DNA of 37,914 nucleotides from Nitrospirales bacterium (GTDB lineage Bacteria > Nitrospirota > Nitrospiria > Nitrospirales > UBA8639). The stretch lies in NCBI GenBank assembly GCA_049607825.1, contig JBMYWX010000001.1, positions 1 through 37,914 on the forward strand. Reading direction: 5' to 3'. Position 1 is the stretch's first letter. Each line of letters begins with the position of its first letter. Below, piece by piece: positions 57-20,236 of this stretch. Below the pieces are notes generated by a model. That model worked only from the letters and a program-made list of their open reading frames with translations. It had not been told where the DNA came from and did no database searches. The translations under genes were made by a program, and so were the position numbers.

Positions 57-1007
57 CTACACTGCAACGGCAACGGGCTTAGAATGATTCACGATGGCCC
101 TTACTGTTGTGGATAGATGTTGTACATGAATTCCATAATGACCCAAGAGATCAGCTTGGGACCCATATCGATCTGGAAATTCGTCAGGAATTCCTATTCG
201 TTTAAAGCATTTACGTTGACGAAAGTCGGTTTCAGCGATGACCTCAGCAATGGCACTTCCAAGCCCCCCGATGATCGAATGTTCCTCGATTGTCACTATC
301 GCGGGGACTGAATCCATTAGACCAATAAGTGTTTCTGCATCAAGCGGTTTTACAGTCGGCACATGCACAACTGCTGCATTGATTCCTTCATCTTCAAGCT
401 GGGTTGCGGCTTGTAATGCAATATTCAGCGTCACCCCCGTTGTCACAATTAAGGCATCCCTCCCTTCCTTCATCTGAAACACAGGTCCAATCTGAAAGGG
501 TTCATTTTGTTCTGTTAGAATTGGATCGCCTCCCTTTGCCATTCGAATATAAATCGGACCTGAATAGTCTCTGCTTGCGCAAATGAGTTGGCGCATTTCC
601 GAGGCATCTGCAGGAGCGACAATCGTCATTCGAGGCAAGGCCCGGAGAATCGCGATATCGTCAATAGCAAGATGTGTCGGTCCTAATGGTGCGTAAACTA
701 ACCCACCACCACTACCAAGTAATCGCACATTCGCATCATGCAAACAGACGTCGACGGCTAACTGCTCAAAGCAACGTCTAGTCAAAAACGTTGCAATCGT
801 ATTGACATAGGGGATCTTTCCTTCAAGGGCAAGTCCCGTTGCGATTCCAATAATATTTGCTTCGCTTACGCCTTCCATGAAAAACCGTTCGGGCATTTCT
901 TGTCGAAACTCATTGAGAGTCCCATTACCCAAATCCGAACCTATAAAGAAGATTCGAGGATCCTCTTTGGCCAAATCATACACCGTATCCAAACAAGTTT
1001 TTCTCAT
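57..1007 (-). CDS. Transketolase, C-terminal (pyrimidine-binding) subunit, copy 1
   Basis: 316-aa ORF. Transketolase C-half motifs: EGVSEANIIGIATGLALEGKIPYVNTIATF and IEEHSIIGGLGSAIAE. Its start forms an ATGA overlap with the stop of the N-half ORF upstream. Confidence 0.9.
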   Translation of the reverse strand: MRKTCLDTVYDLAKEDPRIFFIGSDLGNGTLNEFRQEMPERFFMEGVSEANIIGIATGLALEGKIPYVNTIATFLTRRCFEQLAVDVCLHDANVRLLGSGGGLVYAPLGPTHLAIDDIAILRALPRMTIVAPADASEMRQLICASRDYSGPIYIRMAKGGDPILTEQNEPFQIGPVFQMKEGRDALIVTTGVTLNIALQAATQLEDEGINAAVVHVPTVKPLDAETLIGLMDSVPAIVTIEEHSIIGGLGSAIAEVIAETDFRQRKCFKRIGIPDEFPDRYGSQADLLGHYGIHVQHLSTTVRAIVNHSKPVAVAV

Positions 1008-1867
1008 CGTGAGTTTGCCAAACCTTGAAACAATGTTTGCATTTCAACATCACTAATTTTACTTTTGTGATGCCAAGCAGGATTACTTTCAGCAAAGGGG
1101 ATGCCTCGGCCTTTGACCGTGTGGCAAATTACAAGGCTAGGTTTATTTTTTATTTTGGGTAGTTCACTGCACGCGTCCTTTAGCGCAAAAACATCATGGC
1201 CATCTACTTCGACGACATGAAAACCAAACGATCTCCACTTATCTGCAAGCGGCTCTAAATTTTGAACGTTTTCTGTCTGACCATAAGACTGGTATTTATT
1301 ACAATCAATCATGACCGTGAGATTGTCTAGTTGATGTTTTCCAGCACTAAGAGCTCCTTCCCAGATTGTCCCTTCGTTTGACTCCCCGTCTCCAACAACT
1401 ACATAGACTCTGTTCGCAGCATGCTCATACTTCGCATGTAGGGCACAACCAATTCCGATTGAAAGCCCGTGGCCTAAGCTTCCTGTTGAAAATTCCACTC
1501 CAGGAGTTTTGTGATTAGGATGCCCTCCTAACATCGCTTCAAAAGAACAAAACTTCTTCAGTTCTGATCGTGAGATAAACCCTTTATCTGCAAGTATTGC
1601 ATAGAGTGCCAAACACCCATGACCTTTGCTGAGTATAAAGCGATCGCGACCACTCCATTTTGGATCGGAAACGTCATATTGCAAAACTTCATCATACAAA
1701 ACTCTAAGAATTTCGATCAGAGAAAAAGCGGAACCGAGATGCCCTCGTCGTGCGGCCTTCAGCATACCAAGAATTTCTCGGCGTAAATATTTCGAACGTT
1801 CATCAAGAACAGTCGAAGATTCTGATGTTTTAGATAAAGGCATATATGTGTCTGTCATACTGTTCAA
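1004..1867 (-). CDS. Transketolase, N-terminal (ThDP-binding) subunit, copy 1
   Basis: 287-aa ORF. Contains GSLGHGLSIG and the ThDP motif GDGESNEGTIWEGALSAGKHQLDNLTVMIDCN. The start is uncertain (Met at 1867, 1858 or 1843) and overlaps the upstream kinase stop. Confidence 0.9.
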   Translation of the reverse strand: MNSMTDTYMPLSKTSESSTVLDERSKYLRREILGMLKAARRGHLGSAFSLIEILRVLYDEVLQYDVSDPKWSGRDRFILSKGHGCLALYAILADKGFISRSELKKFCSFEAMLGGHPNHKTPGVEFSTGSLGHGLSIGIGCALHAKYEHAANRVYVVVGDGESNEGTIWEGALSAGKHQLDNLTVMIDCNKYQSYGQTENVQNLEPLADKWRSFGFHVVEVDGHDVFALKDACSELPKIKNKPSLVICHTVKGRGIPFAESNPAWHHKSKISDVEMQTLFQGLANSR

Positions 1868-2783
1868 TTATTTCGGATAACATACATTTCGATTTTTGTA
1901 GTTGTCTACGCTGGCGTTCTTGCCAGTTTTCCTGCGAATACGCTGCAAACTGTCGACGTGCTAATTCGTCGGGGAGAAATTCATTGAGCATAATTAAACA
2001 CCATTTCATCCCGAACAAGGGATACATACAATTCATTCGATACACGATATTTTTCTCTTCAACGAACACGGAAATCATATTTTGAAGAAATCGTTGTTTC
2101 ATACGGTGGGTTAACTCCATCGCTGGATGCAAAAGAAAGTCCACCATAAGCTTCACTGGATCGTCCCACCCAAAGTATTCAAAATCTACGAATACAAGCC
2201 CACACGTTTTCTTTTGTATGACATTATGAAAACCACAGTCTGAAGGGCTCAACGTACGTTTCTTTACTGCTAATTCTTCACTCTTCAATAAACCGCATTT
2301 TTCTATAGCTTTGATACAGTAATGTCTAATTTTTTCATAAGTAGGAATGAAGGTAGACTCAAGAAATCGTTGAAGCTCTTGATGTTGATTACTCAAAGAG
2401 AGACATGCTCGAAGCCGAGTAAGCCGTGTCTCGACCGTCATCAAAACACCATCCAAAGAGAACGCGGCCTCAGACGCTGAGGAAAATTCCAGACTTCCAC
2501 TCTGCTCGCTCAATTGATACAAGTGTTTGAGAAAACGACATACCTCATCTATATCGGAGAGTTCAATGTCAGTGGATTTCAAACCTTGCCCCTCAACAAA
2601 TTCATACACTCCACAACCGACATCTGGTATCATACAAATAGGACGCGGCACTTGATCTACTCCATTGTTACGCAGAAACGACAAAGCAGAAAACTCGGTC
2701 TGAAGGCGATCGCGTTGATCCCGTAAAGACTGGTGGTAGTACTTCACCAGATACGAGGTTCCATCTTCACACACACACTTCAT
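1830..2783 (-). CDS. APH/choline-kinase-fold phosphotransferase (substrate unknown)
   Basis: 317-aa ORF. Kinase-fold core: YLVKYY (beta3 Lys), SPSDCGFHNVI (catalytic loop), VFVDFEYFGWDDP (metal-binding DFE). The homologous-looking N-terminal segment lies upstream of the first ATG (see findings), so the 5' boundary is unreliable. Confidence 0.75.
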   Translation of the reverse strand: MKCVCEDGTSYLVKYYHQSLRDQRDRLQTEFSALSFLRNNGVDQVPRPICMIPDVGCGVYEFVEGQGLKSTDIELSDIDEVCRFLKHLYQLSEQSGSLEFSSASEAAFSLDGVLMTVETRLTRLRACLSLSNQHQELQRFLESTFIPTYEKIRHYCIKAIEKCGLLKSEELAVKKRTLSPSDCGFHNVIQKKTCGLVFVDFEYFGWDDPVKLMVDFLLHPAMELTHRMKQRFLQNMISVFVEEKNIVYRMNCMYPLFGMKWCLIMLNEFLPDELARRQFAAYSQENWQERQRRQLQKSKCMLSEIIEQYDRHIYAFI

Positions 2784-2886: not shown

Positions 2887-3525
2887 TTAGAGAGGGAAAC
2901 AGTAATGGTCTAATTCCTTCCATGTTTCATATGGTAAGACTCGGCTATGGCGATCCTTAGCATCTCCACCAGGATGAAACCAGAGCTGCTCTACACCATC
3001 TGGGAAATGTGGTTCACAGAACGTTTCATGGAGATCATCGATAAAACAAGTACACTTTTGACGAACAATTCTTTTGACTTTCAGCTCCCGCGTATCTTCA
3101 AAAAACACGTGAGCATGAGGAATACTCCACTTGTGATCGCCAATAATTTTTTGCGCTCTTAACCATGTCCAGGCAGCTTTTCTAAAATCAATATCCGTTT
3201 TCTTCTTCGAAGGATGTTGTGTTTTATGACTAATGATAAAGATTGGGATACTTCTGGCATTCGCCCTTTCGAAAAACTGAAGGACGCCAGCTGAAGGTAC
3301 AGCTTCAAGTATTCGTTCGCCATACACAGTTACTTGTAAGTTCCACCAATCATCATCTCCTGTTGATCGACTTCGTACACGATCTCGAATCTCTCGTTTG
3401 CAATGAGGAGTATAAGTGTCAATGAATCCACGCTCACATGCGAGCTGATAAAACAGTTCGTCGTAATTAATAATGGTATTATCCAGGTCTATTCCGATTA
3501 TCTGCTGAAATTCGCTCACAAGCAC
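2887..3525 (-). CDS. HAD-superfamily hydrolase (probable sugar-phosphate phosphatase)
   Basis: 212-aa ORF. HAD motif I GIDLDNTI (DxDxT) is near the N terminus, followed by IFIISHKT and a late CFIDD acidic motif. The GTG start directly abuts the TGA of the upstream SDR gene. Confidence 0.75.
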   Translation of the reverse strand: MLVSEFQQIIGIDLDNTIINYDELFYQLACERGFIDTYTPHCKREIRDRVRSRSTGDDDWWNLQVTVYGERILEAVPSAGVLQFFERANARSIPIFIISHKTQHPSKKKTDIDFRKAAWTWLRAQKIIGDHKWSIPHAHVFFEDTRELKVKRIVRQKCTCFIDDLHETFCEPHFPDGVEQLWFHPGGDAKDRHSRVLPYETWKELDHYCFPL

Positions 3526-4530
3526 TCAGACCAATTGCACTTCTTTCATCCGCTTGATATTGAAATACTGGCTATCCTCAAAAGAATTAGGAATTTGCCC
3601 ATCCTGAAAGGCTGTCATTAAATCGCCAATGGCGTCTCGAACTGTATGCTGAGGAGTAAACCCTAATTCGCGAGCAATCTTTTCAGAAGAAATATGATAC
3701 GAACGATGATCATTCGTTTCCGTTTGAACAATTTCTACATCAGAGCCCACACAACCTTTGACCATCTCCGCAATTTCAGAGACACAATGGTTATGGTAGC
3801 CGGCATTAAATACCTGCCCATCAACCTTCGCCGATGGCCATTCCAAGGATTGTGTATACACCTCAACCATATCTTGAATATGGATATTAGGACGTTTTTG
3901 CTCTCCCCCATATACCGTGATCTTTCGATTGTTGACTGCATGATTGGTCAAAATATTTACAGTAAGATCGAGTCTCAGACGTGGCGAGTAGCCACAGACC
4001 GTTGCGGGACGAATCACAAGAACCTCAAAACCTGGCCATCGTTTCTCGAGCAAGATCTTTTCACACAGTGCTTTGAATTTGGAGTAGTCCGTTAATGGTT
4101 CAAGCGGAAGATCTTCTGTAACATGCTCTTCGTTCTTTACCCCATAGACACTGGATGATGAAGCATAGATAAAACGTCGAACGCCTGATTCACGAGCGCA
4201 ATCCACTAACCCGGTAAATGCATCGTAATTTATTGAGCGGCCCAACTCTGGGTTTAATTCAAAGCTGGGGTCATTCGAAATACAGGCTAAATGGATGATC
4301 GCATCGCATCCTGGAATTGACTGCTCTAAGATGACGCGATCGCGAATATCTCCTCGAATCTCTTCAAGATTCTCATGACCTCGAACCCCCTCCAACGCTG
4401 ATTCGCCATAGAGGTACAGGTCCAGTACTTTGACCCGATGCCCTTCCGCTAAGAGACGAGGCACCAAAGCGGAACCGACATATCCCGCACCACCAGTCAC
4501 TAAGACTACCTTGTCATCTTGAACTCTCAT
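3526..4530 (-). CDS. NAD-dependent sugar epimerase/dehydratase (extended SDR)
   Basis: Rossmann motif VVLVTGGAGYVGSAL and catalytic YSKFK (YxxxK). The ORF is open to 4557. I place the start at ATG 4530 (MRVQDDK...), which is preceded by GAGGAAG. Confidence 0.85.
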   Translation of the reverse strand: MRVQDDKVVLVTGGAGYVGSALVPRLLAEGHRVKVLDLYLYGESALEGVRGHENLEEIRGDIRDRVILEQSIPGCDAIIHLACISNDPSFELNPELGRSINYDAFTGLVDCARESGVRRFIYASSSSVYGVKNEEHVTEDLPLEPLTDYSKFKALCEKILLEKRWPGFEVLVIRPATVCGYSPRLRLDLTVNILTNHAVNNRKITVYGGEQKRPNIHIQDMVEVYTQSLEWPSAKVDGQVFNAGYHNHCVSEIAEMVKGCVGSDVEIVQTETNDHRSYHISSEKIARELGFTPQHTVRDAIGDLMTAFQDGQIPNSFEDSQYFNIKRMKEVQLV

Positions 4531-4618
4531 GAAATCTTCTTCCTCATAACACAACATGAAACGTCAAAAGTGAAAAATAAGTTGTTCGTATCTCAATTCA
4601 CGTTTCACCCATAATCTT

Positions 4619-6154
4619 TTACTTTAAGAGCGATTCCACTCCCCGTCTTAGCTGTACGGCATCCACTGATCGACTATTTCCAACCGTCATCACCGATTGC
4701 GCTCCCGCAAGGTTTCCGATGAGCCCAACGATATCAGGTGGCGCACCCATGGCTACACATGGCGCCGTCAACGCAAAAAGCGCATCCCCCGCCCCTATGC
4801 GATCGACGACTTTTGTCGCTAATGACGGACTTTCGAAAAAACCTTGATCCTGTTGATACAACAGTGTCCCTCGTTTCCCTTGGGTCACCATGACCGAAGG
4901 ACATCCCAGGCCGGTTGAGAGACGTTTGATAATATCGTTCATATCGCCATGGGAGTCACGTTGATCTAACCGAATCTCAGTTTCGTGAATGGACACATAG
5001 TCGGCCCTGGAATATTTCGAAATTGTGTGAAATCCATTATTTGCAGCATTGATTTGAGTATTAACCGCCAGAAACGGAGATTGTGTACCCACTAAGTCAA
5101 TTGCGGCCTTTGTCATGAGTCCATGGCCAAAGTCCGCGGCAATTACGACATCATACGAAGCTAATGTTCCGTCTAATCGTTCACATAGCTCCGCATTCTC
5201 ACGACTTGTAAGATCAGCATCGTTCATTTCATACACTTCAAAGAGTTTCGAAAATTGATATTCTTCAATAAATCGACGCTTCACAATCGTTGGAGATCCA
5301 GTCTTATAGATGAAGTGTGGGTGGATATTCGGTTTCAAATGACGGCGAATAAAATTCTCCTGAGGTTGAACCGTTCCCAAGTATGAAACCAGGTCCACAT
5401 GGTCGCAACACTCAGCTAAATGATTGGCGATTGCCAGACTTCCACCCGCATGTATTTCTTTAGATTGATACTGCATCGCCAAGATCGGCTCTTTCGATGA
5501 TTTCCCAAGCGCATGGCAATAGACATATTCATCCAGAATCGCTTCGCCAAGCACCAACACACGGAGAGATTTCATGCGTTCGAGATAGTTGATCACATTA
5601 GCAGCCGTGTAACGTTCCCGAAAATTCGTTAACCACCCGTTGAGATCTGATGGAAACATCGGCACATAGCGGTTCAGTAAACTCGTTGAACTAAATTGCA
5701 CATCGTTGGTTGTTTCAAGACGACCCCCAATAGATTGGACGGCAGCTGTTTCTCGTTCGATTCCACCAGTTAAATCAGGACGACCAGATTTATAGTCTGG
5801 TCCTTTTACATAAATATCTGGTCTCAGAGATTTAATCGCATTCTCTGCTGTCTCCCATCGATTCACTGTGACATAGTCCACAGCATCGAGTGCTGCAATG
5901 CCTTCAACACGAAGATCTTCCTGAAACGCGGGTCGATGAGGACCTTTGTTGACATAGCAATCTGGTGTAACCGTCACGACCAGCACATCCCCTAATGCTT
6001 TAGCTTCCTCGAGATGTCGAATATGACCAACATGCAGAAGGTCAAAGACTCCATGACAATGGACGATAGTCTTACCTTCATCACGAGCTTCTTGAAGAGT
6101 TGATTCTAAATCTTCAAGAGATTGGGATTTTTTACAGACTGCCAGACTTGCCAT
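4619..6154 (-). CDS. Bifunctional nucleotidyltransferase (N-terminal, HxGH class) / PfkB sugar kinase (C-terminal)
   Basis: 511-aa ORF. N-terminal part: IVHCHGVFDLLHVGHIRHLEEAK (HxGH, cytidylyl/adenylyl-transferase fold as in RfaE domain II or TagD). C-terminal part: VLVLGEAILDEY... and DRIGAGDALFA (ribokinase/PfkB signature). Confidence 0.85.
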   Translation of the reverse strand: MASLAVCKKSQSLEDLESTLQEARDEGKTIVHCHGVFDLLHVGHIRHLEEAKALGDVLVVTVTPDCYVNKGPHRPAFQEDLRVEGIAALDAVDYVTVNRWETAENAIKSLRPDIYVKGPDYKSGRPDLTGGIERETAAVQSIGGRLETTNDVQFSSTSLLNRYVPMFPSDLNGWLTNFRERYTAANVINYLERMKSLRVLVLGEAILDEYVYCHALGKSSKEPILAMQYQSKEIHAGGSLAIANHLAECCDHVDLVSYLGTVQPQENFIRRHLKPNIHPHFIYKTGSPTIVKRRFIEEYQFSKLFEVYEMNDADLTSRENAELCERLDGTLASYDVVIAADFGHGLMTKAAIDLVGTQSPFLAVNTQINAANNGFHTISKYSRADYVSIHETEIRLDQRDSHGDMNDIIKRLSTGLGCPSVMVTQGKRGTLLYQQDQGFFESPSLATKVVDRIGAGDALFALTAPCVAMGAPPDIVGLIGNLAGAQSVMTVGNSRSVDAVQLRRGVESLLK

Positions 6155-6156
6155 AA

Positions 6157-7176
6157 TTAGACCTCACACGTAATTGCTTCAGACGTTTCTCTACCCAAAT
6201 ATCGAAACCAATCCGACGAAGCTTCCGCAATTGAAGCAGGGTCCCACACGGGAGCTCCCTCCCATGCACGAATATGCTGAAGCATGATATGAACACCCTT
6301 TTCAAACCTAACCTTAGGTGACCATCCAAGCCAATCTCTTGCTTTCTGGGTATCTGCAAATGTGCAATCCGGCTCTCCAGGACGTTTGGGAATCGTAATC
6401 GTTTCACCACCAAGGAGCTCAACTAACCGATTCACGCTATAGGTTCCACCCGACCCAATGTTGAAGATCTCTCCTGAAAAGTCGGAGACTGCAGATTTGA
6501 CAAATGCATCCACCACATCTGTAACAAATGTAAAATCACGTGTTTGCGTACCATCGCCAATTACCGTAAAGGGTTTACCTTGAAGCTTTTGAGCCAGAAA
6601 CACCCCAAAAACAGCACCATAGGTCCCGGATGTTCTTGCACGTGGACCATAGACGTTAAAAAGACGAAGAGACACAGCGGGCAGACCATATATTTTTGCC
6701 CAATGCATCACTAACTGTTCGCCTAAAGATTTGGTTAAGGCATAAGGATATTGAGGACGCGTTTCTGAAGATTCTGGTGTGGGATACACATCAGGTATGC
6801 CATAACATGATGATGAAGCCGTATACATAAACCGCTGCACTCCTGCATGACGCGCACATTCAAGAAGGGTGGCCGTTCCTGAAACATTAGCGTGGAAGTA
6901 TTTCATAGGACTAACAATAGATGGGACAATGTCCGCCAATGCTGCCATATGAAACACCCATTCAATGCCTTCCAACGCACCTCGCACAGCTTGTAGATCA
7001 GCCACATCACCTTCGTGAATCGTCAACCGTGCCTGTCCCTCTAGGTGCGCGATGTTCTCTCGTCGCCCAGTTGAAAAATTGTCCAACACATGAACTTGAT
7101 GACCATCATGGAGAAGTCGCTCCACCAGATGACTCCCTATGAATCCAGCTCCTCCAGTCACTAACACATGCTTCAT
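6157..7176 (-). CDS. NAD-dependent sugar-nucleotide epimerase/dehydratase/decarboxylase (extended SDR)
   Basis: 339-aa ORF. Contains MKHVLVTGGAGFIGSHLVERLL, the SSSCYG serine and YPYALTK (YxxxK). Confidence 0.9.
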   Translation of the reverse strand: MKHVLVTGGAGFIGSHLVERLLHDGHQVHVLDNFSTGRRENIAHLEGQARLTIHEGDVADLQAVRGALEGIEWVFHMAALADIVPSIVSPMKYFHANVSGTATLLECARHAGVQRFMYTASSSCYGIPDVYPTPESSETRPQYPYALTKSLGEQLVMHWAKIYGLPAVSLRLFNVYGPRARTSGTYGAVFGVFLAQKLQGKPFTVIGDGTQTRDFTFVTDVVDAFVKSAVSDFSGEIFNIGSGGTYSVNRLVELLGGETITIPKRPGEPDCTFADTQKARDWLGWSPKVRFEKGVHIMLQHIRAWEGAPVWDPASIAEASSDWFRYLGRETSEAITCEV

Positions 7177-11802: not shown

Positions 11803-13350
11803 TTACTTTTCTGCTCCTACAGGCACGGAATGTTGCCGTTCCAAGGTATGCGAGGCCATTTCCTGAATATGCGCTCGTGTAGGACTCCCAAACTTTTCTT
11901 CAATCATGTGTAAATACGCTGGACTTTCATGGTACTGCTGCCAGGCTTGATCACGGAATGCCAAAACTTCTGCACCGGAAATGTATTTAGTTGGTAGCGG
12001 TAACGAATCAATTGCGTGTTGCGAATATCCTGACCATTTTTCAGGTAATGCCCATCCCTGCAGAATGGCTTGGTTATAGAGGGCAGATCCCGGATAGGCC
12101 ATCGCACTATAGTAGTTTGCAAACTCGCAATTGAGTTCTAAAGACAAATCCATGGTTGCCTGCATAGTTTCATGGTCATCTTCTGGAAGCCCAAAGATAT
12201 AATTGGCAATGACATTGATTCCCTCGGACCGTACATGTTCGATTGTTTTGTACACAAGATCTTGCTTGTACGATTTCAGCACTTCATCACGTACACGTCC
12301 ACTCCCAGCTTCAATCCCGAAGCAGAGCCAGTGAAAACCAGCACGTTTCAGTTTTTCAGCCATACCATCTTTTACCGTATCGACACGGGCATAGGCCCAA
12401 ATATTTAAATCATATCCACGTTCAAGAATTAAGTCGCAGATGGTATTCACGTGACTCTTATTCAGGACAAACATTTCATCTGCAAATTTGATGTTCCGCA
12501 CACCATAGTGATTCACCAGTACATCAATTTGTGAAATAATTGTCTCTGGGCTCCAAAATCGATAACTATTGACTTTTTCAACATAGCCCAAGGCTAACTC
12601 CCCTGACTTAAATGGTGCTTGAATACAACAGTATGTACAGTGATAGGGACATCCCAAAGTCGTATAGAGCGATGCATAGGGCTCACGTTGATCTAAAAAA
12701 CCAAAGCAATGCCAATTATGAGCTCGATAGTTGTTCATGGGAAGTAAATCCCATGCAAGTCCAGGCATATCTTCATCGAGTGTTTCAAGGTTTTTCCCAG
12801 GATGAGTCTTTGCGATATGACCATCATCCCAATAGTACAGACTTGGAACCTTACAAATATTCGCAGCGTCATGCGATTTGAGCATTTCGATCAGGTCCAC
12901 AATCGTCAACAGTCCCTCTCCACCGCAGACATAATCGACTTGTTCTTCTTGTAGGGTTCTCTCAGGTAACGCTGACACATGGCCACCTATCATCAAAATT
13001 TTCTGTTCTGGCTGAACATCTTTCACGGCCGTACAAATAGCTCCTGCGGACGGCATGACCTGGGTAGATGCAGAGGGATTATGTCCATAGACCACAACCA
13101 CAACCAACCTTGGATTAAGATCTACAATCCGCTGCGCTGTTTCCGATGGAGCCAGATTTTCTCCATTTGCATCAATGACCGCGACGGCATAACCTCGTTT
13201 CCTCAGAAACGTCGCCATCAATCCTGGCCAAACCGGTGGTTCAAGCGCAGAAAGAGAAGACCCGAGTGATTGATAAATTTGTGTACGATTTCCTGGATTA
13301 ATTAACACCACATCAACACGAGATGTATTACCCATTTGAACATTCCTCAC
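11803..13350 (-). CDS. B12-binding-domain radical SAM enzyme (class B-like)
   Basis: 515-aa ORF. The N-terminal part has a Rossmann-like cobalamin-domain pattern (VVLINPG..., LVVVVVYGHNP, ILMIGGHVSALPE). The radical SAM cluster motif CPYHCTYC (CxxxCxxC) is at about 12628..12651. Confidence 0.9.
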   Translation of the reverse strand: MRNVQMGNTSRVDVVLINPGNRTQIYQSLGSSLSALEPPVWPGLMATFLRKRGYAVAVIDANGENLAPSETAQRIVDLNPRLVVVVVYGHNPSASTQVMPSAGAICTAVKDVQPEQKILMIGGHVSALPERTLQEEQVDYVCGGEGLLTIVDLIEMLKSHDAANICKVPSLYYWDDGHIAKTHPGKNLETLDEDMPGLAWDLLPMNNYRAHNWHCFGFLDQREPYASLYTTLGCPYHCTYCCIQAPFKSGELALGYVEKVNSYRFWSPETIISQIDVLVNHYGVRNIKFADEMFVLNKSHVNTICDLILERGYDLNIWAYARVDTVKDGMAEKLKRAGFHWLCFGIEAGSGRVRDEVLKSYKQDLVYKTIEHVRSEGINVIANYIFGLPEDDHETMQATMDLSLELNCEFANYYSAMAYPGSALYNQAILQGWALPEKWSGYSQHAIDSLPLPTKYISGAEVLAFRDQAWQQYHESPAYLHMIEEKFGSPTRAHIQEMASHTLERQHSVPVGAEK

Positions 13351-13380: not shown

Positions 13381-14616
13381 TCAAGATAATTCATTTAATA
13401 TTGAGCACAATTTCACAATTTTCTTTTTATTCAATTCAGGATAGTTGCCAATATAGAAACCAAAAAAGTGAATATGTTCAACATTGGGAAATTTCAGAAA
13501 TTCATTTTCTGGAAATCGTCCCCGCAAATACGGCTGTCGTAGCTGATTGCCACCTCCTGATGTCCCACGTCGGAATTCTACGCCATAGCTTCGAAGAACT
13601 TTCTCTACCAGATTTCGTAATTTCACATCGGGGTGTTTTAAGATAAGAACCAGTGCATAGCTGCAGCTTCCCTCAACTGCAAAGTCTGTTTGATATTTAT
13701 GTTCATCAAGGTATTCAAGAAACGTGAGAAGATTTTCAGTTCGAATCGCATTGCGCTCATCGAGTCTACTAAGCTGTGAGCGTCCTAAGACAGCGTTTAA
13801 CTCTGTGTTCCTCACATTGTAAGCTGGCATCGCAAAAATAAAATCAGGATTTAAATCCGGATACTGCTCCCCATAGTGAGTCTTGAGTGCCTTTGACGTA
13901 GATTCTCTCACCATCCCATGCGATCGAAGCATCCGTAACATTTGATACAATTCCTCATCATTCGTACAAATCATGCCTCCTTCGATCGTACTCATATGAT
14001 GCGCGTAATAGAACGAGAAATTTGACATAAGCCCAAAGGTACCAGACTTACGTTCACGATACGTGGCCCCATGCGATTCACACACATCTTCGATCAATGG
14101 GATATTTCTTTTCGACAATGTATCCAACAATTGCTCACTCATAGCATTAAAGCCTAAAATATGGGTTAAGAAGACGGCTTTTGTGTTGGGTGTGATTTTC
14201 GCGATTACCTGGTCTGTGTTCATCCCTAATGTGGAAGAATCAATATCGACGAAGACTGGTTGAAATCCATTCTGAATAACAGAAGTAATATCTGAGACCC
14301 ACGTTAACGTCGGCACGATGATCTCGCCAGTCCCTACGCGATCCCGAAGAGCAGCAAGCGTGACCAGATTGGCTGACGACCCTGAGTTCACAAATACACT
14401 AAATCTGACACCTAACCAGTTCGACCATTCCTGCTCAAAGGATTCTACTTGTTTAGCTTGAGTTAACATTGGATCGTCTTGTTGCAAATACTCACACAAG
14501 GAATCTAGATCAGCGCGCACTATATTATTTTTCATCAAGGGCCATGACAGATCATGGCTTTCGAATGTATCTTCAGTCCATTGAGCCTGATCTGTTTCTA
14601 AATAGATTGTTTTCAT
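13381..14616 (-). CDS. DegT/ColD/RfbH-family PLP/PMP enzyme, dehydratase type (His replaces the Schiff-base Lys)
   Basis: 411-aa ORF. Contains VNSGSSANL, EDVCESHGA and NFSFYYAHHMSTIEGG. The HH dyad (13996..14001) sits where DegT aminotransferases carry Lys. Confidence 0.85.
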   Translation of the reverse strand: MKTIYLETDQAQWTEDTFESHDLSWPLMKNNIVRADLDSLCEYLQQDDPMLTQAKQVESFEQEWSNWLGVRFSVFVNSGSSANLVTLAALRDRVGTGEIIVPTLTWVSDITSVIQNGFQPVFVDIDSSTLGMNTDQVIAKITPNTKAVFLTHILGFNAMSEQLLDTLSKRNIPLIEDVCESHGATYRERKSGTFGLMSNFSFYYAHHMSTIEGGMICTNDEELYQMLRMLRSHGMVRESTSKALKTHYGEQYPDLNPDFIFAMPAYNVRNTELNAVLGRSQLSRLDERNAIRTENLLTFLEYLDEHKYQTDFAVEGSCSYALVLILKHPDVKLRNLVEKVLRSYGVEFRRGTSGGGNQLRQPYLRGRFPENEFLKFPNVEHIHFFGFYIGNYPELNKKKIVKLCSILNELS

Positions 14617-14640
14617 TCTCGTCTTTCGAATGACTCAGTC

Positions 14641-15705
14641 CTAAAGCCCATTTATGCTTACTTCTTTAAAGACAGGCTGTGGAGCCATCTGCCGTGCACG
14701 TTCAGCAATAGTAAAATCTTCCTCTCGATCGCAGAAAATGACTTGACTGCCACTAAAGTCAAACTTGAATGGAACAAGAATTAAGTCTCGAAGGGTTTCC
14801 CGGACCTGCGCTTGACACTCTGGAGGAACAAACAATAAGAGAAACCCTCCACCTCCTGCGCCCGTTAACTTACCTCCCAATGCGCCTGCCTTTCTTGCCC
14901 GTTCATACATGAGGTCGACATCGTCATTCGACACGCTGGAACTCAACGTCCGTTTAGTCACCCACCCTTCATGTAGTAACTCTCCGAACCCTCTCAACCC
15001 TGAGCCACTATTCAGAATGCTCAAGCCTTCAGCCACAAGGTCTTTCATAATTCGTAACTGTCGTTTTCGTGCCTCTAGATCGTGAACATAGGTTTGCGCA
15101 ATATTGGCTGCGGTACGTTTGAAACCTGTGTAAAACAACATAAGATGAGAATTTAACTCGTGTATTCGTTCTTGACCTAATAACACAGGGGTCACCGAAA
15201 TCTGTCCGTTAGTTTGAAAGGTGACGTAATTAAACCCACCATGAGCGGCAAGAACTTGATCTTGAGATCCAACCGTTTCTTTGAGTTGTTCTTGTTCAAT
15301 CGCAATACTTTCCATCGCTAACTGCTGCTTCGTCGGCATAAACCCTTTCAATCCATACAAGGCATGTAAGAGTCCCACAGTAAATGCTGAACTCGTTCCC
15401 ATTCCACTACGGGCAGGAAGATCACCATCATGATGAATCTCCACGCCCTGTTCAATGTTCATCGAACGCAGGACTTCTCTGACAGCGGGGTGCTTAATCT
15501 CGTTAATCGTCTGACAATTTTCAATTTGGGAATAGACAATCCGAATTCTATGTTCAAAAAATGGGGGAAGGAATCGACATGAAAGATAACAATATTTATC
15601 AATCGAGGCCGCGAGCACTACGCCGCCATGCTTTCGATACCACGCAGGGTAATCAGTTCCACCGCCGAAAAATGAAATACGAAATGGGGTGCGGCTAATA
15701 ATCAT
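14641..15705 (-). CDS. hddA: GHMP-family sugar kinase, D-glycero-D-manno-heptose-7-phosphate kinase-like (HddA family)
   Basis: 354-aa ORF. The N terminus MIISRTPFRISFFGGGTDYP is characteristic. GHMP motif PARSGMGTSSAF and GAGGGGF are present. Confidence 0.8.
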   Translation of the reverse strand: MIISRTPFRISFFGGGTDYPAWYRKHGGVVLAASIDKYCYLSCRFLPPFFEHRIRIVYSQIENCQTINEIKHPAVREVLRSMNIEQGVEIHHDGDLPARSGMGTSSAFTVGLLHALYGLKGFMPTKQQLAMESIAIEQEQLKETVGSQDQVLAAHGGFNYVTFQTNGQISVTPVLLGQERIHELNSHLMLFYTGFKRTAANIAQTYVHDLEARKRQLRIMKDLVAEGLSILNSGSGLRGFGELLHEGWVTKRTLSSSVSNDDVDLMYERARKAGALGGKLTGAGGGGFLLLFVPPECQAQVRETLRDLILVPFKFDFSGSQVIFCDREEDFTIAERARQMAPQPVFKEVSINGL

Positions 15706-15944
15706 GTCGTCTTTCTCAACCGATCCCTGGGAATCAAGTCATGGCATCGCGATTGTCATTAAAAGAAAACACGCAACACAACATGCATCGTACGTCTTAC
15801 CACCGACCTTTTCATACGGAATAAGGACATCCGCATTGTTGAAGCACCAAATAGCAATGCTGACATATCAGTTCTATCCTGCAAAAACATTACTCTATTC
15901 TCTGAACACCTCTCGTATTAACCGCCAACCCCTATGCTCGCCAC

Positions 15945-16919
15945 CTACGATGTCCTGACTAGTTTGGCCTTATCCTTTATCTCTTTCGAACATGATTCAT
16001 GGTCGCAAAACCATTGATAGGTATCCTCTAGTGCTTCTCGCATATTCATAGAAGACAACCACCCCATAGAAATAAGAGGGGAACAATCAAGAGACTTCAG
16101 CGGGGCTCCATCTGAAATGTGAGTATTAAAATGAAATGAACCTTGGTACCCAACAACCTCTGCGATAAGAAACGCCAAGGCTTTGATCGACATCGTCGGC
16201 CCACTTCCTAAATTTATCGGTTTTGAACTTTCATATGAGCGCATCACAAACACACAAGCCCTTGCCACATCATCAGCATGCATAAATTGTCTTTGAGGAT
16301 CTCCACTCCCCCAAATTTCTACTGAATCAGCATGCGTACATTTCGCCTCATGTATTTTCCTCATTAACGCAGGAAGAACATGTGCAGTATCAAGAGCAAA
16401 ATCATCATCAGGACCAAAGACATCTCCAGGGATTCCAACAATCCCATTTAGCTGAAATTGCGTGCGATACGCTTTCACCATGACTATTCCTGCTAACTTC
16501 GCGGTCGCATAGGCTTCACTCGTTGGCTCCAAAGATCCAGTCATCAAACTCTCGATGCGCATTGGCTGAGGGCAAATCTTGGGATAGCTACAGGAACTTC
16601 CGAGATACAATAGTTTCTTCACCCTACTCTGTGATGCTGCCTGAATGATATTCGTTTGTGATAAAATATTCCCGGTCATCAAGTCTGCTGGATATTGTTG
16701 ATTCGCACGAATTCCCCCTGCTTTCCCACCAACGTAAAACACATATTCAGGATTCGTGACCTTAAAGAATTCAAAGACTTCTTGTTGATTCTTGAGATTT
16801 GAAACTTCACCGTTTTCTCCCACACGGTGATAGTACCCTTCTTGCTCCAACACACGAATGAGTGCAGAACGCAAAACCGGATGACTTCCAGCTACGAATA
16901 TTTTTGAGTTCTTGTTCAT
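15945..16919 (-). CDS. GDP-L-fucose synthase-like 3,5-epimerase/4-reductase (Fcl/WcaG family SDR)
   Basis: 324-aa ORF, collinear with Fcl as I remember it: YPADL, LGSSCSYP, YATAK, HVLPALMRK, WGSG...R.F.H.DD, GW. The N-terminal glycine motif is degenerate (see findings). Confidence 0.8.
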   Translation of the reverse strand: MNKNSKIFVAGSHPVLRSALIRVLEQEGYYHRVGENGEVSNLKNQQEVFEFFKVTNPEYVFYVGGKAGGIRANQQYPADLMTGNILSQTNIIQAASQSRVKKLLYLGSSCSYPKICPQPMRIESLMTGSLEPTSEAYATAKLAGIVMVKAYRTQFQLNGIVGIPGDVFGPDDDFALDTAHVLPALMRKIHEAKCTHADSVEIWGSGDPQRQFMHADDVARACVFVMRSYESSKPINLGSGPTMSIKALAFLIAEVVGYQGSFHFNTHISDGAPLKSLDCSPLISMGWLSSMNMREALEDTYQWFCDHESCSKEIKDKAKLVRTS

Positions 16920-17051
16920 AGGAAAATTCTGTTACCCTCTACCACCTTTGCCATCTAGGAAAATTAGACATAGTTATTCACATTTCTCCACCACGCGTAC
17001 TGAGGAAGCTGTATAATCTTTAAGACTGCAAGAAAGACTTTTCACACCACA

Positions 17052-17552
17052 TTATTCAACTGTTCCGTACATACCAAGAACCACATCCTTGATTGGTTGT
17101 CTGGAAGGTGGCACAAGCTCAGCTGGTAATTGATGGATAGGAAAGTATTGAAGATCTAGGCTTTCGTCACTGCAGGTTAATTGTCCAGAGAGAACCGTTC
17201 CCTCTACCACCACATCAATAATTTGCAAACCATCTTTTGTATCTGGATACGTCACAATCCGTTCATGAGGGACCGAGTATACGCCGACCAATCGTACTAT
17301 TTTAATCTCTAACCCAGTCTCTTCTTTCACTTCACGAATGGCTGTTTCTCTGATCGACTCTCCAACTTCCAAACTACCTCCAGGTATTCCCCACCAACCG
17401 CAATCTGAACGACGCTCGAGAAGTATCCGATTTTGTATATCTCGAATGATCACGCCGACTCCAAGTCTTAATGTAGTTCCAGGACCAATCGTATTGATCG
17501 CGAACATCTCAGGAACGTCAGAAACGGATTCAAAGTTTTTAGACATTTGCAT
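17052..17552 (-). CDS. NUDIX hydrolase
   Basis: Nudix box GGSLEVGESIRETAIREVKEETGL. The start is uncertain (candidate Met codons at 17603, 17552, 17546 and 17507, none with a good SD). It overlaps the stop of the upstream SDR gene. Confidence 0.8.
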   Translation of the reverse strand: MQMSKNFESVSDVPEMFAINTIGPGTTLRLGVGVIIRDIQNRILLERRSDCGWWGIPGGSLEVGESIRETAIREVKEETGLEIKIVRLVGVYSVPHERIVTYPDTKDGLQIIDVVVEGTVLSGQLTCSDESLDLQYFPIHQLPAELVPPSRQPIKDVVLGMYGTVE

Positions 17553-18471
17553 AAGAATTATTTCGTAAAACTGTAAAACATTTCGTGAGTTCACGAATTC
17601 CATCTTCTAATGACCACTGAGTGTTGTATCCTGTACCAAGAATTCTTGCATTAGACACGATATAGTCTCGTTTATCAGGATCTTCTCCAACTGAAGCTTC
17701 TAAATAGACGAAATTTGGGAAAAATTTCTGAATAACCTGAGAAAGTTCTATCTTTGACAGATTCGCATCTTCTAATCCCAAGTTATACGGCTTGCCCTTC
17801 ATAGTTTCAAAATGTTCAATCGCGTAAATAAATGCTCTGGCCACATCACGTATGTGGACATAATTCCGTTTGAGATGGCCTTCAAATATCGTGACCGCTC
17901 TGTCATGCATCGCACGATACACAAAATCATTCACTAACAAATCTATACGCATGCGAGGAGACGCACCAAATACTGTCGCTAATCGAAAGGTCACGCTAGA
18001 TTCGCGATCAAGCACGACTTTTTCTGCTCTGACTTTTGATTCTCCGTATAAGCTAATAGGACGCAATGGGGTATCCTCCGTACAGTACTGGCCTGGTTCA
18101 CCAATGCCATAACCACTATTCGTGACTGGAAACAGTATCATTTGAGAAGGAGAGGCAAGCTTACACAGAAGCTGTACGGCATCAAAATTAACGGACCGCG
18201 CACAAACACGATCTTGCTCACAGGCTGGAGCCCCAACCAGTGCCGCGAGAGGGATGAGACAATCATGACGTGTCACAAGTCTATGCAAGACTTTTTCATC
18301 TCGACAGTCTCCTCGAATCATTTCAAAGTTCGAATTGGCACAACAATCCATCAGACTAGATTGTCTATACAAAAAATTATCCAAAACAGTCACTTGATAG
18401 CCTTCGTCTAGCAATGCAGGAACCAAGATTGACCCGATGTAACCTGCCCCGCCAGTCACTAATATCTTCAT
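17539..18471 (-). CDS. NAD-dependent epimerase/dehydratase (SDR)
   Basis: 310-aa ORF. Contains MKILVTGGAGYIGSILVPALL and YGESK (YxxxK). Confidence 0.85.
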   Translation of the reverse strand: MKILVTGGAGYIGSILVPALLDEGYQVTVLDNFLYRQSSLMDCCANSNFEMIRGDCRDEKVLHRLVTRHDCLIPLAALVGAPACEQDRVCARSVNFDAVQLLCKLASPSQMILFPVTNSGYGIGEPGQYCTEDTPLRPISLYGESKVRAEKVVLDRESSVTFRLATVFGASPRMRIDLLVNDFVYRAMHDRAVTIFEGHLKRNYVHIRDVARAFIYAIEHFETMKGKPYNLGLEDANLSKIELSQVIQKFFPNFVYLEASVGEDPDKRDYIVSNARILGTGYNTQWSLEDGIRELTKCFTVLRNNSYANV

Positions 18472-18585: not shown

Positions 18586-19839
18586 TTATGAGACATTTGC
18601 CAGAAATGAAGTCTTAAACTTAGCTCCTGACCCGGCACCCTGCATTCGGTCAGTCAGCCACTTGGCGAAGGCTAATGAACAGGTCATCCCTGGCGAAACC
18701 ATGTTCAAAACATGAATAGTTCGGTCAGTCGATTCGACAATTAGGTCATCGACCAAATGACCATCTGATCGTATTAATTGAGGACTAATGCCGACCCGAC
18801 TTCCAAGAGCTAAGTCTTCTAGTTGCAATCCTTGAATAACCTTACTGGCCTCTTTCCAAAAATACTGTCGAGTCAATGGATGATCATCTTTTTTCCAGGC
18901 CAAGCGAAAAAGCTTTGGATTGCGGAATAAGGCTTTCCACACAGCTTGCTGTCTCACTAATTTGGCCATCGCACTGAATTGTTTCTGAATAGGTTGATAG
19001 GCTTCCCTTCCAAATGCTGGGATAACACTTGGCCCCACCAGCACAGAACCCTGAAGAGTTCGGGTAACATGCACACCTAAAAATGGCAAAGAAAGATCTG
19101 CAATAGGGTAGACCGTCGAGCGTATGATAGGTGAGTCTGAACCCATCACAGTAAAATATATTCCTCGAAACGGCACCATCAAATATTCCCCACCGATACC
19201 CATTGCATGAGCCAAACGATCGGCATGCAAGCCAGCACAATTAATCACAAGCTCTGACGTATACCGACTATCACGTGTGACAACATTCACCATATCTCCA
19301 TGTTCTTGAATACTCACGACCTCTTGCCAATACAGAATGGTGGCACCTGATCGACTCGCATCATTCACCAGTGACTTTGTCAAAGCTCTTGAATCAATGA
19401 TGGCACCCGTCGGTGCAAATAAAGCCATATGACCAGTAATATGGGGTTCATGTGATCTCACCTTCGAAATAGGAACAAGTCGGAGATCAGGAACACCATT
19501 GCGGTCGCCCCGTCCTTTTAAATCTTCAAGAACGGGAACCTGTGACTCATCAGTTGCGACAACATACGTTCCGACCTGTTCAATTGGAATCCGACGCGAC
19601 TCAGCGTACTTACGAATGGCATAGTTTCCTTCAACACACAGACGGGCAGTCAATGATCCTGGAGTTGCATGAAATCCTGAATGCACAATCCCACTGTTGC
19701 GACCACTCGTATGTAAGCCGACATCTGGCTCTTTTTCAAGTAATAAGACCTTGCACCGTTGGGCTGCTAGACTGCGTGCAATCGCACATCCCAGCACACC
19801 ACCTCCAATAATAATGACATCATAGAATTGACCTTTCAT
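18586..19839 (-). CDS. FAD-dependent oxidoreductase (DAO family, L-2-hydroxyglutarate oxidase-like)
   Basis: Contains the dinucleotide motif YDVIIIGGGVLGCAIARSLA, HTSGRNSGIVHSG and INCAGLHAD. The ORF opens with GTG 19842 followed immediately by ATG 19839. Confidence 0.85.
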   Translation of the reverse strand: MKGQFYDVIIIGGGVLGCAIARSLAAQRCKVLLLEKEPDVGLHTSGRNSGIVHSGFHATPGSLTARLCVEGNYAIRKYAESRRIPIEQVGTYVVATDESQVPVLEDLKGRGDRNGVPDLRLVPISKVRSHEPHITGHMALFAPTGAIIDSRALTKSLVNDASRSGATILYWQEVVSIQEHGDMVNVVTRDSRYTSELVINCAGLHADRLAHAMGIGGEYLMVPFRGIYFTVMGSDSPIIRSTVYPIADLSLPFLGVHVTRTLQGSVLVGPSVIPAFGREAYQPIQKQFSAMAKLVRQQAVWKALFRNPKLFRLAWKKDDHPLTRQYFWKEASKVIQGLQLEDLALGSRVGISPQLIRSDGHLVDDLIVESTDRTIHVLNMVSPGMTCSLAFAKWLTDRMQGAGSGAKFKTSFLANVS

Positions 19840-20236
19840 CACATAGCCAATGATACAAGTTATATGCCAAGACGATCATCAAGAAACTGATGTCTTTTCA
19901 AACAGCTAGCGACCACATTGCCCAGAGTACCTAGGCAAACAGCAATTATTGCCTACCTAGGATGAAGAATATTAGAGAAAGAATATAGAGGAATGAGTAC
20001 TGAGATAGAGCAACAAAGAAAAATTGAAGGAATAATTCCTCAGCGAATTGGTGAAGACATTTCCAATTCAACAAGCTCAAGCAATCGAATGACACAGTAG
20101 GCTATCGTGTGAAGTGAGATCGTAGGGATAGCGACGGGTTCAATGGTGTGTGTAGTCAATGCCGTCTCGTGACAGATGACGTATAAGACCGACCGTATCC
20201 AACGTACTCGGTGTATATCAGGGACTCTCTTGAGGA

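Follow-up and report, generated by a model that had tools for sequence, protein, structure and literature searches.

A cassette-built nucleotide-sugar gene block beside the late flagellar genes of a Nitrospirales bacterium, probably one half of a flagellin glycosylation island

Contig JBMYWX010000001.1 of the Nitrospirales bacterium assembly GCA_049607825.1 carries a block of nucleotide-sugar genes directly after a set of late flagellar genes. We refer to the whole contig, all 37,914 nt of which were analysed, as the window, and number positions from its first letter. The block occupies 57–19842 as an unbroken series of 19 open reading frames (ORFs), all on the minus strand, and is cut by the contig end. 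We propose that this block of a marine Nitrospirales bacterium is probably the part of a flagellin glycosylation island that makes nucleotide sugars; it is assembled from cassettes and truncated by the end of the contig. Cassette 1 (19842–11803) would work on a nucleotide-activated heptose, a unit containing the first of two split transketolases would extend the sugar, and cassette 2 (8120 to position 1 and beyond) would provide a second, ADP-heptose-like activation line.

Upstream of the block, the order of genes is csrA (20237–20491, minus strand, Pfam CsrA, immediately upstream of the block), fliW (20553–21056, minus strand, Pfam FliW), a GGDEF response regulator gene, flgL, flgK, flgN, flgM, a rod-binding protein gene and flgI. 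The FlgL and FlgK identities are backed by Pfam, in agreement with the flgK-flgL-fliW-csrA neighbourhood described in the initial annotation. Of the named organisms, Candidatus Nitrospira salsa (order Nitrospirales) is the closest; its B12-radical S-adenosylmethionine (SAM) protein is 87% identical to that of the window. Comparison loci are designated here by L numbers; the junction between csrA and the sugar block is common to the Nitrospirales loci L002 and L003. In L159, which is an extended version of L002, the block is followed by genes for a 2074-aa protein with GT2, GT1-type, methyltransferase and TPR domains, a GT9 protein, two Glyco_trans_1_2-domain proteins and a second GT9 protein, then by a small ORF, and then by flagellin, flaG, fliD and fliS. 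In Ca. N. salsa (L157) a gene for a 1413-aa glycosyltransferase/methyltransferase/TPR protein precedes the block. In L035 flagellin lies directly before, in this order, genes for an LhgO-type oxidase, SDR_a (one of four extended short-chain dehydrogenases/reductases, SDRs, of the block), a nucleotidyltransferase, a GHMP kinase, transketolase 1 (TK1), a D-2-hydroxyacid dehydrogenase (2HADH), a ColD-type dehydratase, the B12-radical SAM enzyme (rSAM) and a NUDIX hydrolase. We note that L035 is labelled as an Akkermansia muciniphila metagenome-assembled genome (MAG), a non-motile species, yet encodes flagellin, which suggests mis-binning or a wrong label. Fusions of GT2, GT1-type, SAM-methyltransferase and TPR domains of 1,400–2,200 aa are very common in Nitrospira, where they stand beside these sugar cassettes (L002/L159, L157 and many contigs).

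From this gene order flagellin is the probable target of the glycan in the Nitrospirales lineage, and the flagellin-glycosylation context raised in the initial annotation is likely, given both L159 and L035. Glycosyltransferase and flagellin genes would be expected just past the contig end. The initial annotation had also read the block as purely a precursor factory lacking any glycosyltransferase, which does not hold, as the contig ends inside the island and the related L159 continues with glycosyltransferases. Protein O-heptosylation by GT9-related proteins is established for autotransporters (PMC4358343). Literature searches for flagellin glycosylation in Nitrospira returned nothing. It is unlikely that the block instead supplies precursors for a non-flagellar surface glycan (the O-antigen or core of lipopolysaccharide (LPS), a capsule or an S-layer) and came to lie among flagellar genes through island insertion only. 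Such a target would suit the Acidobacteria (Vicinamibacterales) and Nitrospira loci in which cassette 1 stands with a GT2 gene and a gene for a 590-aa hydrophobic protein with no flagellar genes in view, the cultured Maridesulfovibrio salexigens and a Cytophagia MAG in which cassette 2 has no flagellar neighbours, and the resemblance, although weak (56–67 bits), of the L159 GT9 proteins to LPS heptosyltransferases. It fits poorly with the position after fliW-csrA, which is conserved in three Nitrospirales genomes, with the placement of the L159 island between csrA and flagellin-flaG-fliD-fliS, and with the adjacency to flagellin that arises independently in L035; moreover, neither the window nor L159 shows a Wzx/Wzy system, an ABC exporter or a priming transferase for a lipid carrier.

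The second component of our proposal, that the block is built from cassettes, comes from two samples of loci. One was anchored on the rSAM protein as query and comprises 75 loci from many phyla, of which the 71 of at least 10 kb were counted; the other was anchored on the C-terminal half of transketolase 2 (TK2_C), for which 80 of 488 metagenome matches were fetched and the 41 loci of at least 8 kb counted. The best of these 488 relatives are 60–69% identical to TK2_C, and none is closer than ~69%. Among the rSAM-anchored loci we find rSAM itself in 65/71, the GHMP kinase in 58/71, SDR_a in 57/71 and a ColD-type protein in 14/71, and all four are absent from the TK2-anchored loci (0/41 each), as are the rSAM-cassette genes overall. 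An ordinary DegT-type protein (25–45% identity) is present in 47 of the 71, an HddC-like NTP-transferase in 37 and an Fcl-like protein in 24. Conversely, the TK2-anchored loci contain the N-terminal half of transketolase 2 (TK2_N, 40/41), the APH-fold kinase (38/41), the HAD-like protein (35/41), a methyltransferase (30/41, with homologous N-termini downstream of TK2_C), a reversed-order HldE-like enzyme and SDR_d (24/41 each) and SDR_c (17/41), whereas the HldE-like enzyme and SDR_d are each found in just 3/71 rSAM-anchored loci, and the APH-fold kinase and the HAD-like protein in 1/71 each. A third unit, consisting of the two halves of transketolase 1 (TK1_N and TK1_C), 2HADH and SDR_b, accompanies the rSAM cassette in L002, L003, L004 and L067, and the first three of these genes do so in L035.

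Apart from the window, the two main cassettes are joined only in the Nitrospirales loci L003 and L004/L157 and in the Cytophagia MAG L016. Even here the composition varies: L003 and L004 have a thiamine diphosphate (ThDP)-dependent E1 alpha/beta pair at the place of the HAD, APH and transketolase 2 genes of the window, and L016 fuses the two cassettes as in the window without the GHMP kinase and nucleotidyltransferase genes, and its HldE-like gene lies directly after rSAM. L002 has an ordinary DegT protein instead of ColD, plus a second rSAM gene. The block is thus a mosaic of independently distributed cassettes, not the single 19-gene unit that had been described. Chance co-location of central-metabolism genes for transketolase, SerA and LhgO was considered and ruled out because the same neighbours recur across phyla. 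In Vicinamibacterales and other Acidobacteriota (L022–L075), the DegT-type rSAM cassette regularly occurs with the GT2 gene and the gene for the 590-aa hydrophobic protein, which lacks a Pfam match; this arrangement recalls ArnC/ArnT-style periplasmic glycosylation via a lipid carrier.

The separate distribution also bears on whether the genes, twenty with the truncated one at the contig end, act in a single linear route to one heavily modified sugar, with the reversed HldE-like enzyme as its sole activator and no two parallel lines. This we regard as rather unlikely. The lack of an HddC-type transferase in the window would be explained by it, L016 fuses its cassettes in a like manner, and SDR_d is itself Cj1427-like. 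However, the cassettes are almost never found together (0/41 and 3/71 loci), the HddA-type kinase that has been kept would duplicate the PfkB kinase domain of the HldE-like enzyme, and the close relatives L003 and L004 hold both an HddC-type nucleotidyltransferase and the HldE-like gene.

Cassette 1 as proposed here has the closest resemblance to known heptose enzymes at SDR_a (17539–18471), a putative Cj1427-like NDP-heptose C4-dehydrogenase. Its best PDB matches are 6VO6/6VO8 (389 bits, E 1e-115; the next match has 87 bits), and it is 53% identical to 6VO6 over 308 residues with no gaps; we take 6VO6 to be Cj1427 of Campylobacter jejuni, a GDP-heptose C4-dehydrogenase. The putative HddA-family GHMP heptose-phosphate kinase (14641–15705) has HddA as its top NCBIfam model (133 bits, under the cutoff of 600). 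Its four best PDB matches are 4USK, 4USM, 3K85 and 4N3O (112–130 bits), and a fucokinase is next at 61 bits; 3K85 and 4N3O are named D-glycero-D-manno-heptose phosphate kinases, and 4USK and 4USM, deposited as 'putative sugar kinase', are presumably the Burkholderia heptokinase WcbL. These two proteins uphold the reading of the block as heptose-directed. In cyanobacterial and Chloroflexi loci, cassette 1 also includes an NTP-transferase, a SIS isomerase and a GmhB-like HAD protein (176 bits against a cutoff of 178), which together with the GHMP kinase constitute the full four-enzyme GDP-heptose route.

The deoxygenation step is predicted to be carried out by a ColD-type sugar 3-dehydratase dependent on pyridoxal or pyridoxamine phosphate (PLP/PMP; 13381–14616). 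This DegT-family protein has ColD (2GMS) as its best PDB match (191 bits; the E1 dehydrase 3BCX scores 123), and the first His of its AHHMST motif aligns with the catalytic His188 of ColD, the position mutated in entries 3B8X and 2R0T. Deoxygenation of the E1/E3 (RfbH) type was rejected because the protein is closer to ColD. It is accompanied by a predicted Fcl/ColC-like epimerase/4-reductase (15945–16919) with GSSCSYP and YATAK motifs, which matches the NCBIfam model for GDP-L-fucose synthase over its full length (347.6 bits, under the cutoff of 500); its sequence places it within the GDP-L-fucose synthase/ColC family and not as an Fcl equivalog. Both the ColD-type and the Fcl-like enzymes had been recognised initially and are present, together with a set of SDRs; the predicted deoxygenation is however confined to C3, as the catalytic acid-pair motif of 4,6-dehydratases was found in no SDR of the block, and a 4,6-dehydratase among them was accordingly rejected. 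A NUDIX hydrolase gene (17052–17546; Pfam NUDIX, 79 bits) has an intact NUDIX box, a likely start at ~17546 that overlaps the end of SDR_a, and orthologues in L004, L008, L010, L014, L018 and L035. Its position beside the Fcl-like gene had been likened to that of gmm beside fcl, but the protein has no specific similarity to Gmm in NCBIfam.

The first gene of the block (18586–19842) encodes an FAD-dependent L-2-hydroxyglutarate oxidase of the LhgO type (Pfam DAO, 199.6 bits). It exceeds the curated cutoff of NCBIfam model NF008726 (337.5 bits against 299), as do its counterparts in L003 (355 bits), L035 (539 bits) and L010 (614 bits). The gene adjoins SDR_a in the window, L003 and L035, and sits after rSAM in the cyanobacterial loci L008 and L010. 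LhgO is encoded in 5/15 loci with a ColD-type protein and in 0/47 loci with a DegT-type protein, for which a hypergeometric calculation by hand gives ~5e-4, a value that makes the association look stronger than it is, since the five loci come from only about three independent lineages. Cj1427 contains tightly bound NADH that is re-oxidised by alpha-ketoglutarate in a ping-pong reaction, yielding L-2-hydroxyglutarate, and Cj1427 and a C3-dehydratase have been shown to work together in vitro (PMC10680097). Since the LhgO-type enzyme passes the curated cutoff and is encoded next to Cj1427-like genes in three lineages, it probably returns the L-2-hydroxyglutarate by-product of a Cj1427-type reaction to alpha-ketoglutarate. 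An FAD oxidase had initially been listed among the enzymes foreign to any heptose pathway; as an LhgO-type enzyme it instead fits the alpha-ketoglutarate/L-2-hydroxyglutarate cycle of Cj1427. Literature searches for LhgO together with heptose found no description of such a link.

Cassette 1 ends with the B12-binding rSAM enzyme (11803–13335; Pfam PF02310, 46 bits, and PF04055, 56 bits), which has a single CxxxCxxC motif (C234-x3-C-x2-C). The best NCBIfam match is HpnJ (149 bits against a cutoff of 578) and the best PDB match is AprD4 (49 bits); with NCBIfam scores far under the cutoffs, it could be placed in no characterised subfamily (HpnJ, BchE, PhpK, AprD4, GenK-type and others). The family is large, with more than 7,900 homologues at E<=1e-30 among 8,000 scored candidates, all with generic names only. 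A ColD gene is immediately upstream of rSAM in 12/14 loci with a ColD-type protein, and the neighbourhood usually includes a ThDP enzyme (transketolase or E1 alpha/beta), which suggests that rSAM acts on a 4-keto or 3-deoxy intermediate. C-methylation, the commonest reaction of class-B radical SAM enzymes, is the most likely reaction, and a dehydratase-type or rearrangement reaction may be alternatives. Literature searches for cobalamin radical SAM enzymes with heptose or GDP-sugars returned nothing.

Between the two cassettes are TK1_N (10931–11761; Pfam Transketolase_N, the ThDP-binding half, with a GDG...N motif), TK1_C (9969–10919; Pfam Transket_pyr and Transketolase_C), 2HADH (9024–9965; Pfam 2-Hacid_dh_C, 181 bits) and SDR_b (8137–9027; Pfam Epimerase, 151 bits), a short extended SDR whose ATG overlaps the 2HADH stop codon. 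2HADH resembles phosphoglycerate dehydrogenase (PGDH, 212 bits in NCBIfam) and glyoxylate or hydroxypyruvate reductases (glyoxylate reductase, 176 bits), with both scores under the cutoffs. B12-radical SAM enzymes, ThDP enzymes that form C–C bonds and heptose pathways co-occur in antibiotic biosynthesis, and a heptose-using secondary-metabolite cluster of the septacidin or hygromycin type, making no surface glycan, might be envisaged. We consider this very improbable, as neither the window nor its relatives have aglycone, nucleoside, non-ribosomal peptide or polyketide synthase, resistance or export genes, and the block is located among flagellar genes and, in L159, is followed by glycosyltransferases and flagellin.

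The catalytic steps that we infer for a flagellin sugar from these proteins would run as follows. SDR_a would oxidise the nucleotide-heptose at C4, its bound NADH being re-oxidised with alpha-ketoglutarate and L-2-hydroxyglutarate released, and the LhgO-type flavoenzyme would convert this to alpha-ketoglutarate. The ColD-type enzyme would remove the C3 hydroxyl of the 4-keto sugar, rSAM would modify the resulting 4-keto/3-deoxy intermediate, and the Fcl/ColC-like enzyme would carry out an epimerisation followed by C4 reduction. As the block has no 4,6-dehydratase, the C6 hydroxyl should be retained, and the product would be a 3-deoxy-heptose derivative. The TK1-2HADH-SDR_b unit may then add two carbons in a yersiniose-like manner, with 2HADH making hydroxypyruvate, TK1 moving a glycolaldehyde unit onto the keto or aldehyde sugar, and SDR_b reducing the product; for this we draw on gene context and textbook transketolase chemistry. 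The complete structure, i.e. a flagellin sugar that is a 3-deoxy-heptose with a C6 hydroxyl, C-modified by rSAM as a new class-B radical SAM family, branched or extended by two carbons through transketolase (a branched heptose or a nine-carbon, non-ulosonic sugar), attached by protein heptosyltransferases of the GT9 type and made with the LhgO coupling, is put forward tentatively and is unlikely to be right as a whole.

Cassette 2 resembles a diverged ADP-heptose set. A SIS-domain, GmhA-like sugar-phosphate isomerase (7494–8120; Pfam SIS_2) has phosphoheptose isomerase as its best NCBIfam models, with 58–71 bits against cutoffs of 209–320, and SDR_c (6157–7176) is a GalE/LegB-like, epimerase-type SDR (NCBIfam GalE 188, LegB 182 and heptose 6-epimerase 121 bits, all under cutoff). 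The HldE-like bifunctional enzyme (4619–6154; Pfam CTP_transf_like and PfkB) has its domains in reversed order, nucleotidyltransferase then PfkB kinase, and scores 115 bits against a cutoff of 345 for rfaE domain I and 109 against 181.5 for rfaE domain II, with a PDB match to heptose 7-phosphate kinase 4E84. SDR_d (3526–4557; Pfam Epimerase) is a distant member of the Cj1427 subfamily with 34.5% identity to 6VO6. The adjacent gene (2887–3525) is predicted from its fold to encode a capped HAD-superfamily phosphatase of an unnamed family. It has no Pfam or NCBIfam match, and a profile search against PDB sequences gave marginal matches only, but its DxDxT, S/T, K and DD motifs vary little or not at all. 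An AF2 model from a 45-sequence alignment has a predicted local distance difference test (pLDDT) score of 94.2, and Foldseek gave 114 matches at E<=0.001 (best E 8e-7), the top ones listed being nearly all capped-type HAD phosphatases. On this model the protein is of the capped HAD type and not GmhB. The HAD phosphatase call made in the initial annotation is therefore backed by model and fold search, the GmhB profile does not detect the protein, and the remaining domain calls were reproduced with Pfam and NCBIfam.

An APH-fold kinase of an unnamed family (1830–2783; Pfam APH, 23.6 bits, at threshold) follows, whose profile matches only the corramycin phosphotransferase in PDB (E 1.4e-4, marginal). 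Its sequence relationships suggest that it is functionally tied to the HAD gene because a natural HAD-APH fusion exists; P0281, a 365-aa homologue, also has an APH domain. Transketolase 2 is split into TK2_N (1004–1858; Pfam Transketolase_N, 167 bits), for which the best PDB match is the split-chain transketolase 6YAK (228 bits), and TK2_C (57–1007; Pfam Transket_pyr and Transketolase_C). Cassette 2 is intact in the cultured M. salexigens DSM 2638. There (L160; CP001649.1, 600718–621326) the cassette of reversed HldE-like, SIS, HAD, APH, transketolase and methyltransferase genes lies beside a NeuB-like synthase gene, with two non-B12 radical SAM genes and a second methyltransferase gene, hinting that in this organism it feeds a higher-carbon sugar pathway. 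Both L016 (13105–14085) and L160 (7343–8293) encode a ~320-aa protein between the HldE-like and SIS genes that has no counterpart in the window; that of L016 belongs to the 'GSU2086 family' (NCBIfam, 377 bits).

Beyond TK2_C a 20th co-directional gene begins at about position 29, 27 nt past the last transketolase gene, and is truncated by the contig end. Its first codons, with a visible ATG, occupy 1–29 on the minus strand. A 3.4-kb Logan contig (L001) overlaps the left end of the window and adds 140 nt, making the gene readable to 37 aa as a small class I SAM methyltransferase of the Methyltransf_11/31 family. Inspection beyond position 1, where flagellin or glycosyltransferase genes had been envisaged, thus gained the start of a methyltransferase gene, but the contig ends there and neither flagellin nor a glycosyltransferase was reached. 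The packing described in the initial annotation (19 co-directional, tightly spaced genes with ATGA and TGA-GTG coupling) agrees with the ORF tiling and the junctions: ATGA overlaps join 2HADH to SDR_b (9027/9024) and TK2_N to TK2_C (1007/1004), the SDR_d/HAD junction is TGA-GTG (3526/3525), and the longest gaps inside the block are 317 nt (7177–7493) and 239 nt (15706–15944). Listed ORF starts are overlong for several genes, with likely starts at 9027 for SDR_b, ~17546 for the NUDIX gene, 13335 for rSAM, ~10919 for TK1_C and 1858 for TK2_N.

The regions around csrA and fliW have several further features. Upstream of fliW (~21110–21140, minus strand) the sequence TTAACTCT-11 nt-AACCGATAA looks by eye like a sigma-28 (FliA) promoter, although a stricter regular expression gave no match, and nothing comparable was seen by eye in the 394-nt gap that separates csrA from the first sugar gene. 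Within that gap, between csrA and the LhgO gene, there is an imperfect palindrome CCTAGGTAGGCAATAATTGCTGTTTGCCTAGG (19930–19975, minus strand) with no T-run after it, possibly an operator or an RNA hairpin. The 678-nt spacer between the GGDEF response regulator gene and fliW includes a decayed receiver-domain gene (21232–21735, minus strand) with several in-frame stops, the first at codon 44. It aligns (28% identity over 168 aa, E 1.7e-12) with the N-terminal part of a 785-aa response regulator/PAS protein that L002 encodes intact at that position. An Rfam scan of the window gave no match.

A number of results weigh against the proposal of a heptose-based flagellin glycosylation island. Six-frame tblastn and hidden Markov model (HMM) searches built from 19 relatives found no HddC-type NTP-transferase in the window, and six-frame HMM searches from relatives found neither GmhB nor GT2 there; the GDP-heptose line is thus incomplete on the contig because it has no HddC-type nucleotidyltransferase and no GmhB. 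No glycosyltransferase (Pfam/NCBIfam, six-frame HMMs) and no flagellin are encoded on the contig. Both cassettes have the flagellum-free settings described above. The identification of 6VO6 with Cj1427 is presumed from a deposit name that shares a typo with the genome annotation. Most NCBIfam scores are under the curated cutoffs, and the substrates of cassette 2 could therefore differ from heptose. Both transketolases seem, by eye and by E. coli TktA numbering, to keep the arginines that bind sugar phosphates, and their substrates may therefore be sugar phosphates and not nucleotide sugars. Matches to promoter and terminator consensus sequences were no more frequent than in shuffled sequences, and these scans are uninformative on co-transcription with the flagellar genes.

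The nucleotide-heptose core recognised in the initial annotation consequently stands in part: the HddA-like kinase is there as a top-model match, the SIS isomerase is weak, and HddC and GmhB were not found. An HddC-type nucleotidyltransferase is present in L002, L003, L004 and L035, and the sole nucleotidyltransferase domain in the window is the N-terminal half of the reversed HldE-like fusion. The Fcl-like gene fills the slot of an HddC-like NTP-transferase gene in Ca. N. salsa (L004/L157), flanked by spacers of 239 nt (15706–15944) and 132 nt (16920–17051), which suggests that it replaced the NTP-transferase gene; an HddC remnant was searched for in these long gaps and none was detected. The missing functions may be encoded elsewhere, the HldE-like enzyme may activate the sugar of the whole block, or the branch may be decaying. 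If the GDP-heptose branch is decaying, the loss of HddC would leave cassette 1 non-functional or reliant on genes elsewhere, and the predicted product would not be made. The absence from the window of a gene that four relatives have, the Fcl-like gene in its slot with long gaps on both sides, and the decayed response-regulator gene nearby would all be in keeping with this; all 19 ORFs, however, are intact with conserved catalytic motifs, and a gene for an HddC or ManC-type enzyme could lie in the rest of the genome, beyond the 38-kb contig. Decay of the branch is therefore, in our view, quite improbable.

Among known systems, the C. jejuni capsular heptose pathways (the Cj1427 route, and GDP-3,6-dideoxy-heptose in HS:5/HS:11) share with the block an HddA-type kinase, a Cj1427-like dehydrogenase, a ColD-type PLP C3-dehydratase and an epimerase/4-reductase acting on nucleotide-heptose. 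The natural C. jejuni products are 3,6-dideoxy heptoses (PMC10440746), whereas the block lacks a 4,6-dehydratase and a 3-deoxy product is predicted. Its single Fcl/ColC-like enzyme stands for a separate cupin epimerase and reductase; the block also adds the LhgO-type oxidase, rSAM and transketolases, has no HddC and is in a flagellar rather than a capsular context. The GDP-L-colitose pathway (Gmd, ColD and ColC; E. coli O55, Yersinia pseudotuberculosis) likewise has a ColD-type 3-dehydratase with the catalytic His and an Fcl-like epimerase/reductase, but the predicted substrate of the block is a heptose, and its 4-keto group would come from a Cj1427-type dehydrogenase and not from Gmd. Yersiniose biosynthesis (YerE/YerF) and E1 alpha/beta systems of the AviB1/AviB2 type offer a parallel in which a 3-deoxygenated 4-keto nucleotide sugar meets a C–C bond-forming ThDP enzyme and a reductase. 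This likeness is an analogy from gene context, and the ThDP enzyme here is a split transketolase rather than the acetolactate-synthase-like YerE. Cassette 2 has the GmhA-like SIS protein, both HldE domains, a HAD phosphatase and epimerase-type SDRs of the ADP-heptose pathway (GmhA, HldE, GmhB, HldD), but with reversed HldE domains, scores far under cutoffs, a capped HAD protein that is not GmhB, and an added APH kinase, transketolase and methyltransferase. LhgO of glutarate/lysine catabolism (CsiD-LhgO) is of the same enzyme family as the first gene of the block, by the curated cutoff, but the latter has no CsiD or glutarate-pathway neighbour and adjoins a Cj1427-like sugar dehydrogenase.

Flagellin glycosylation islands of Pseudomonas aeruginosa, P. 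syringae, Campylobacter, Clostridioides and Listeria (with a GmaR-type TPR protein) similarly place sugar genes among late flagellar genes, and in relatives of the block the island lies between flgL-fliW-csrA and flagellin-flaG-fliD-fliS and includes TPR-bearing multidomain glycosyltransferases. The sugars of known flagellin islands are nonulosonic acids, derivatives of viosamine or rhamnose, or GlcNAc. We know of none with heptose-pathway genes, GT9 transferases, a B12-radical SAM enzyme or transketolases, and literature searches found none. Searches for the gene combination as a whole also returned nothing, and no characterised locus with the same gene set came to light, i.e. no glycan-solved counterpart of the kind that the initial annotation had set against its own claim of an undescribed pathway. 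Flagellin glycosylation islands and heptose tailoring are each known already; their combination, the widespread rSAM and transketolase cassettes and the proposed LhgO coupling are not described.

These findings would mean that the heptose-tailoring chemistry recently solved in Campylobacter also operates in environmental nitrite oxidisers and beside flagellar genes, and they predict a natural route to 3-deoxy-heptoses, which in PMC10680097 were made only by combining enzymes in vitro. A dedicated LhgO would explain, in a testable way, how Cj1427-type enzymes keep L-2-hydroxyglutarate from building up, and if correct it would be the first case in which an L-2-hydroxyglutarate oxidase is metabolically dedicated to a nucleotide-sugar dehydrogenase, closing the alpha-ketoglutarate cycle of the Cj1427 type. 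Two groups of proteins emerge as targets for enzymology: the B12-radical SAM family, thousands strong and nearly always found with a Cj1427-like dehydrogenase and a ThDP enzyme, and the very widespread, uncharacterised cassette of HAD, APH-kinase, split-transketolase and methyltransferase genes. If the complete structure outlined above, unlikely as it is, proves correct, the flagellin of Nitrospirales would bear a sugar not yet seen in nature.

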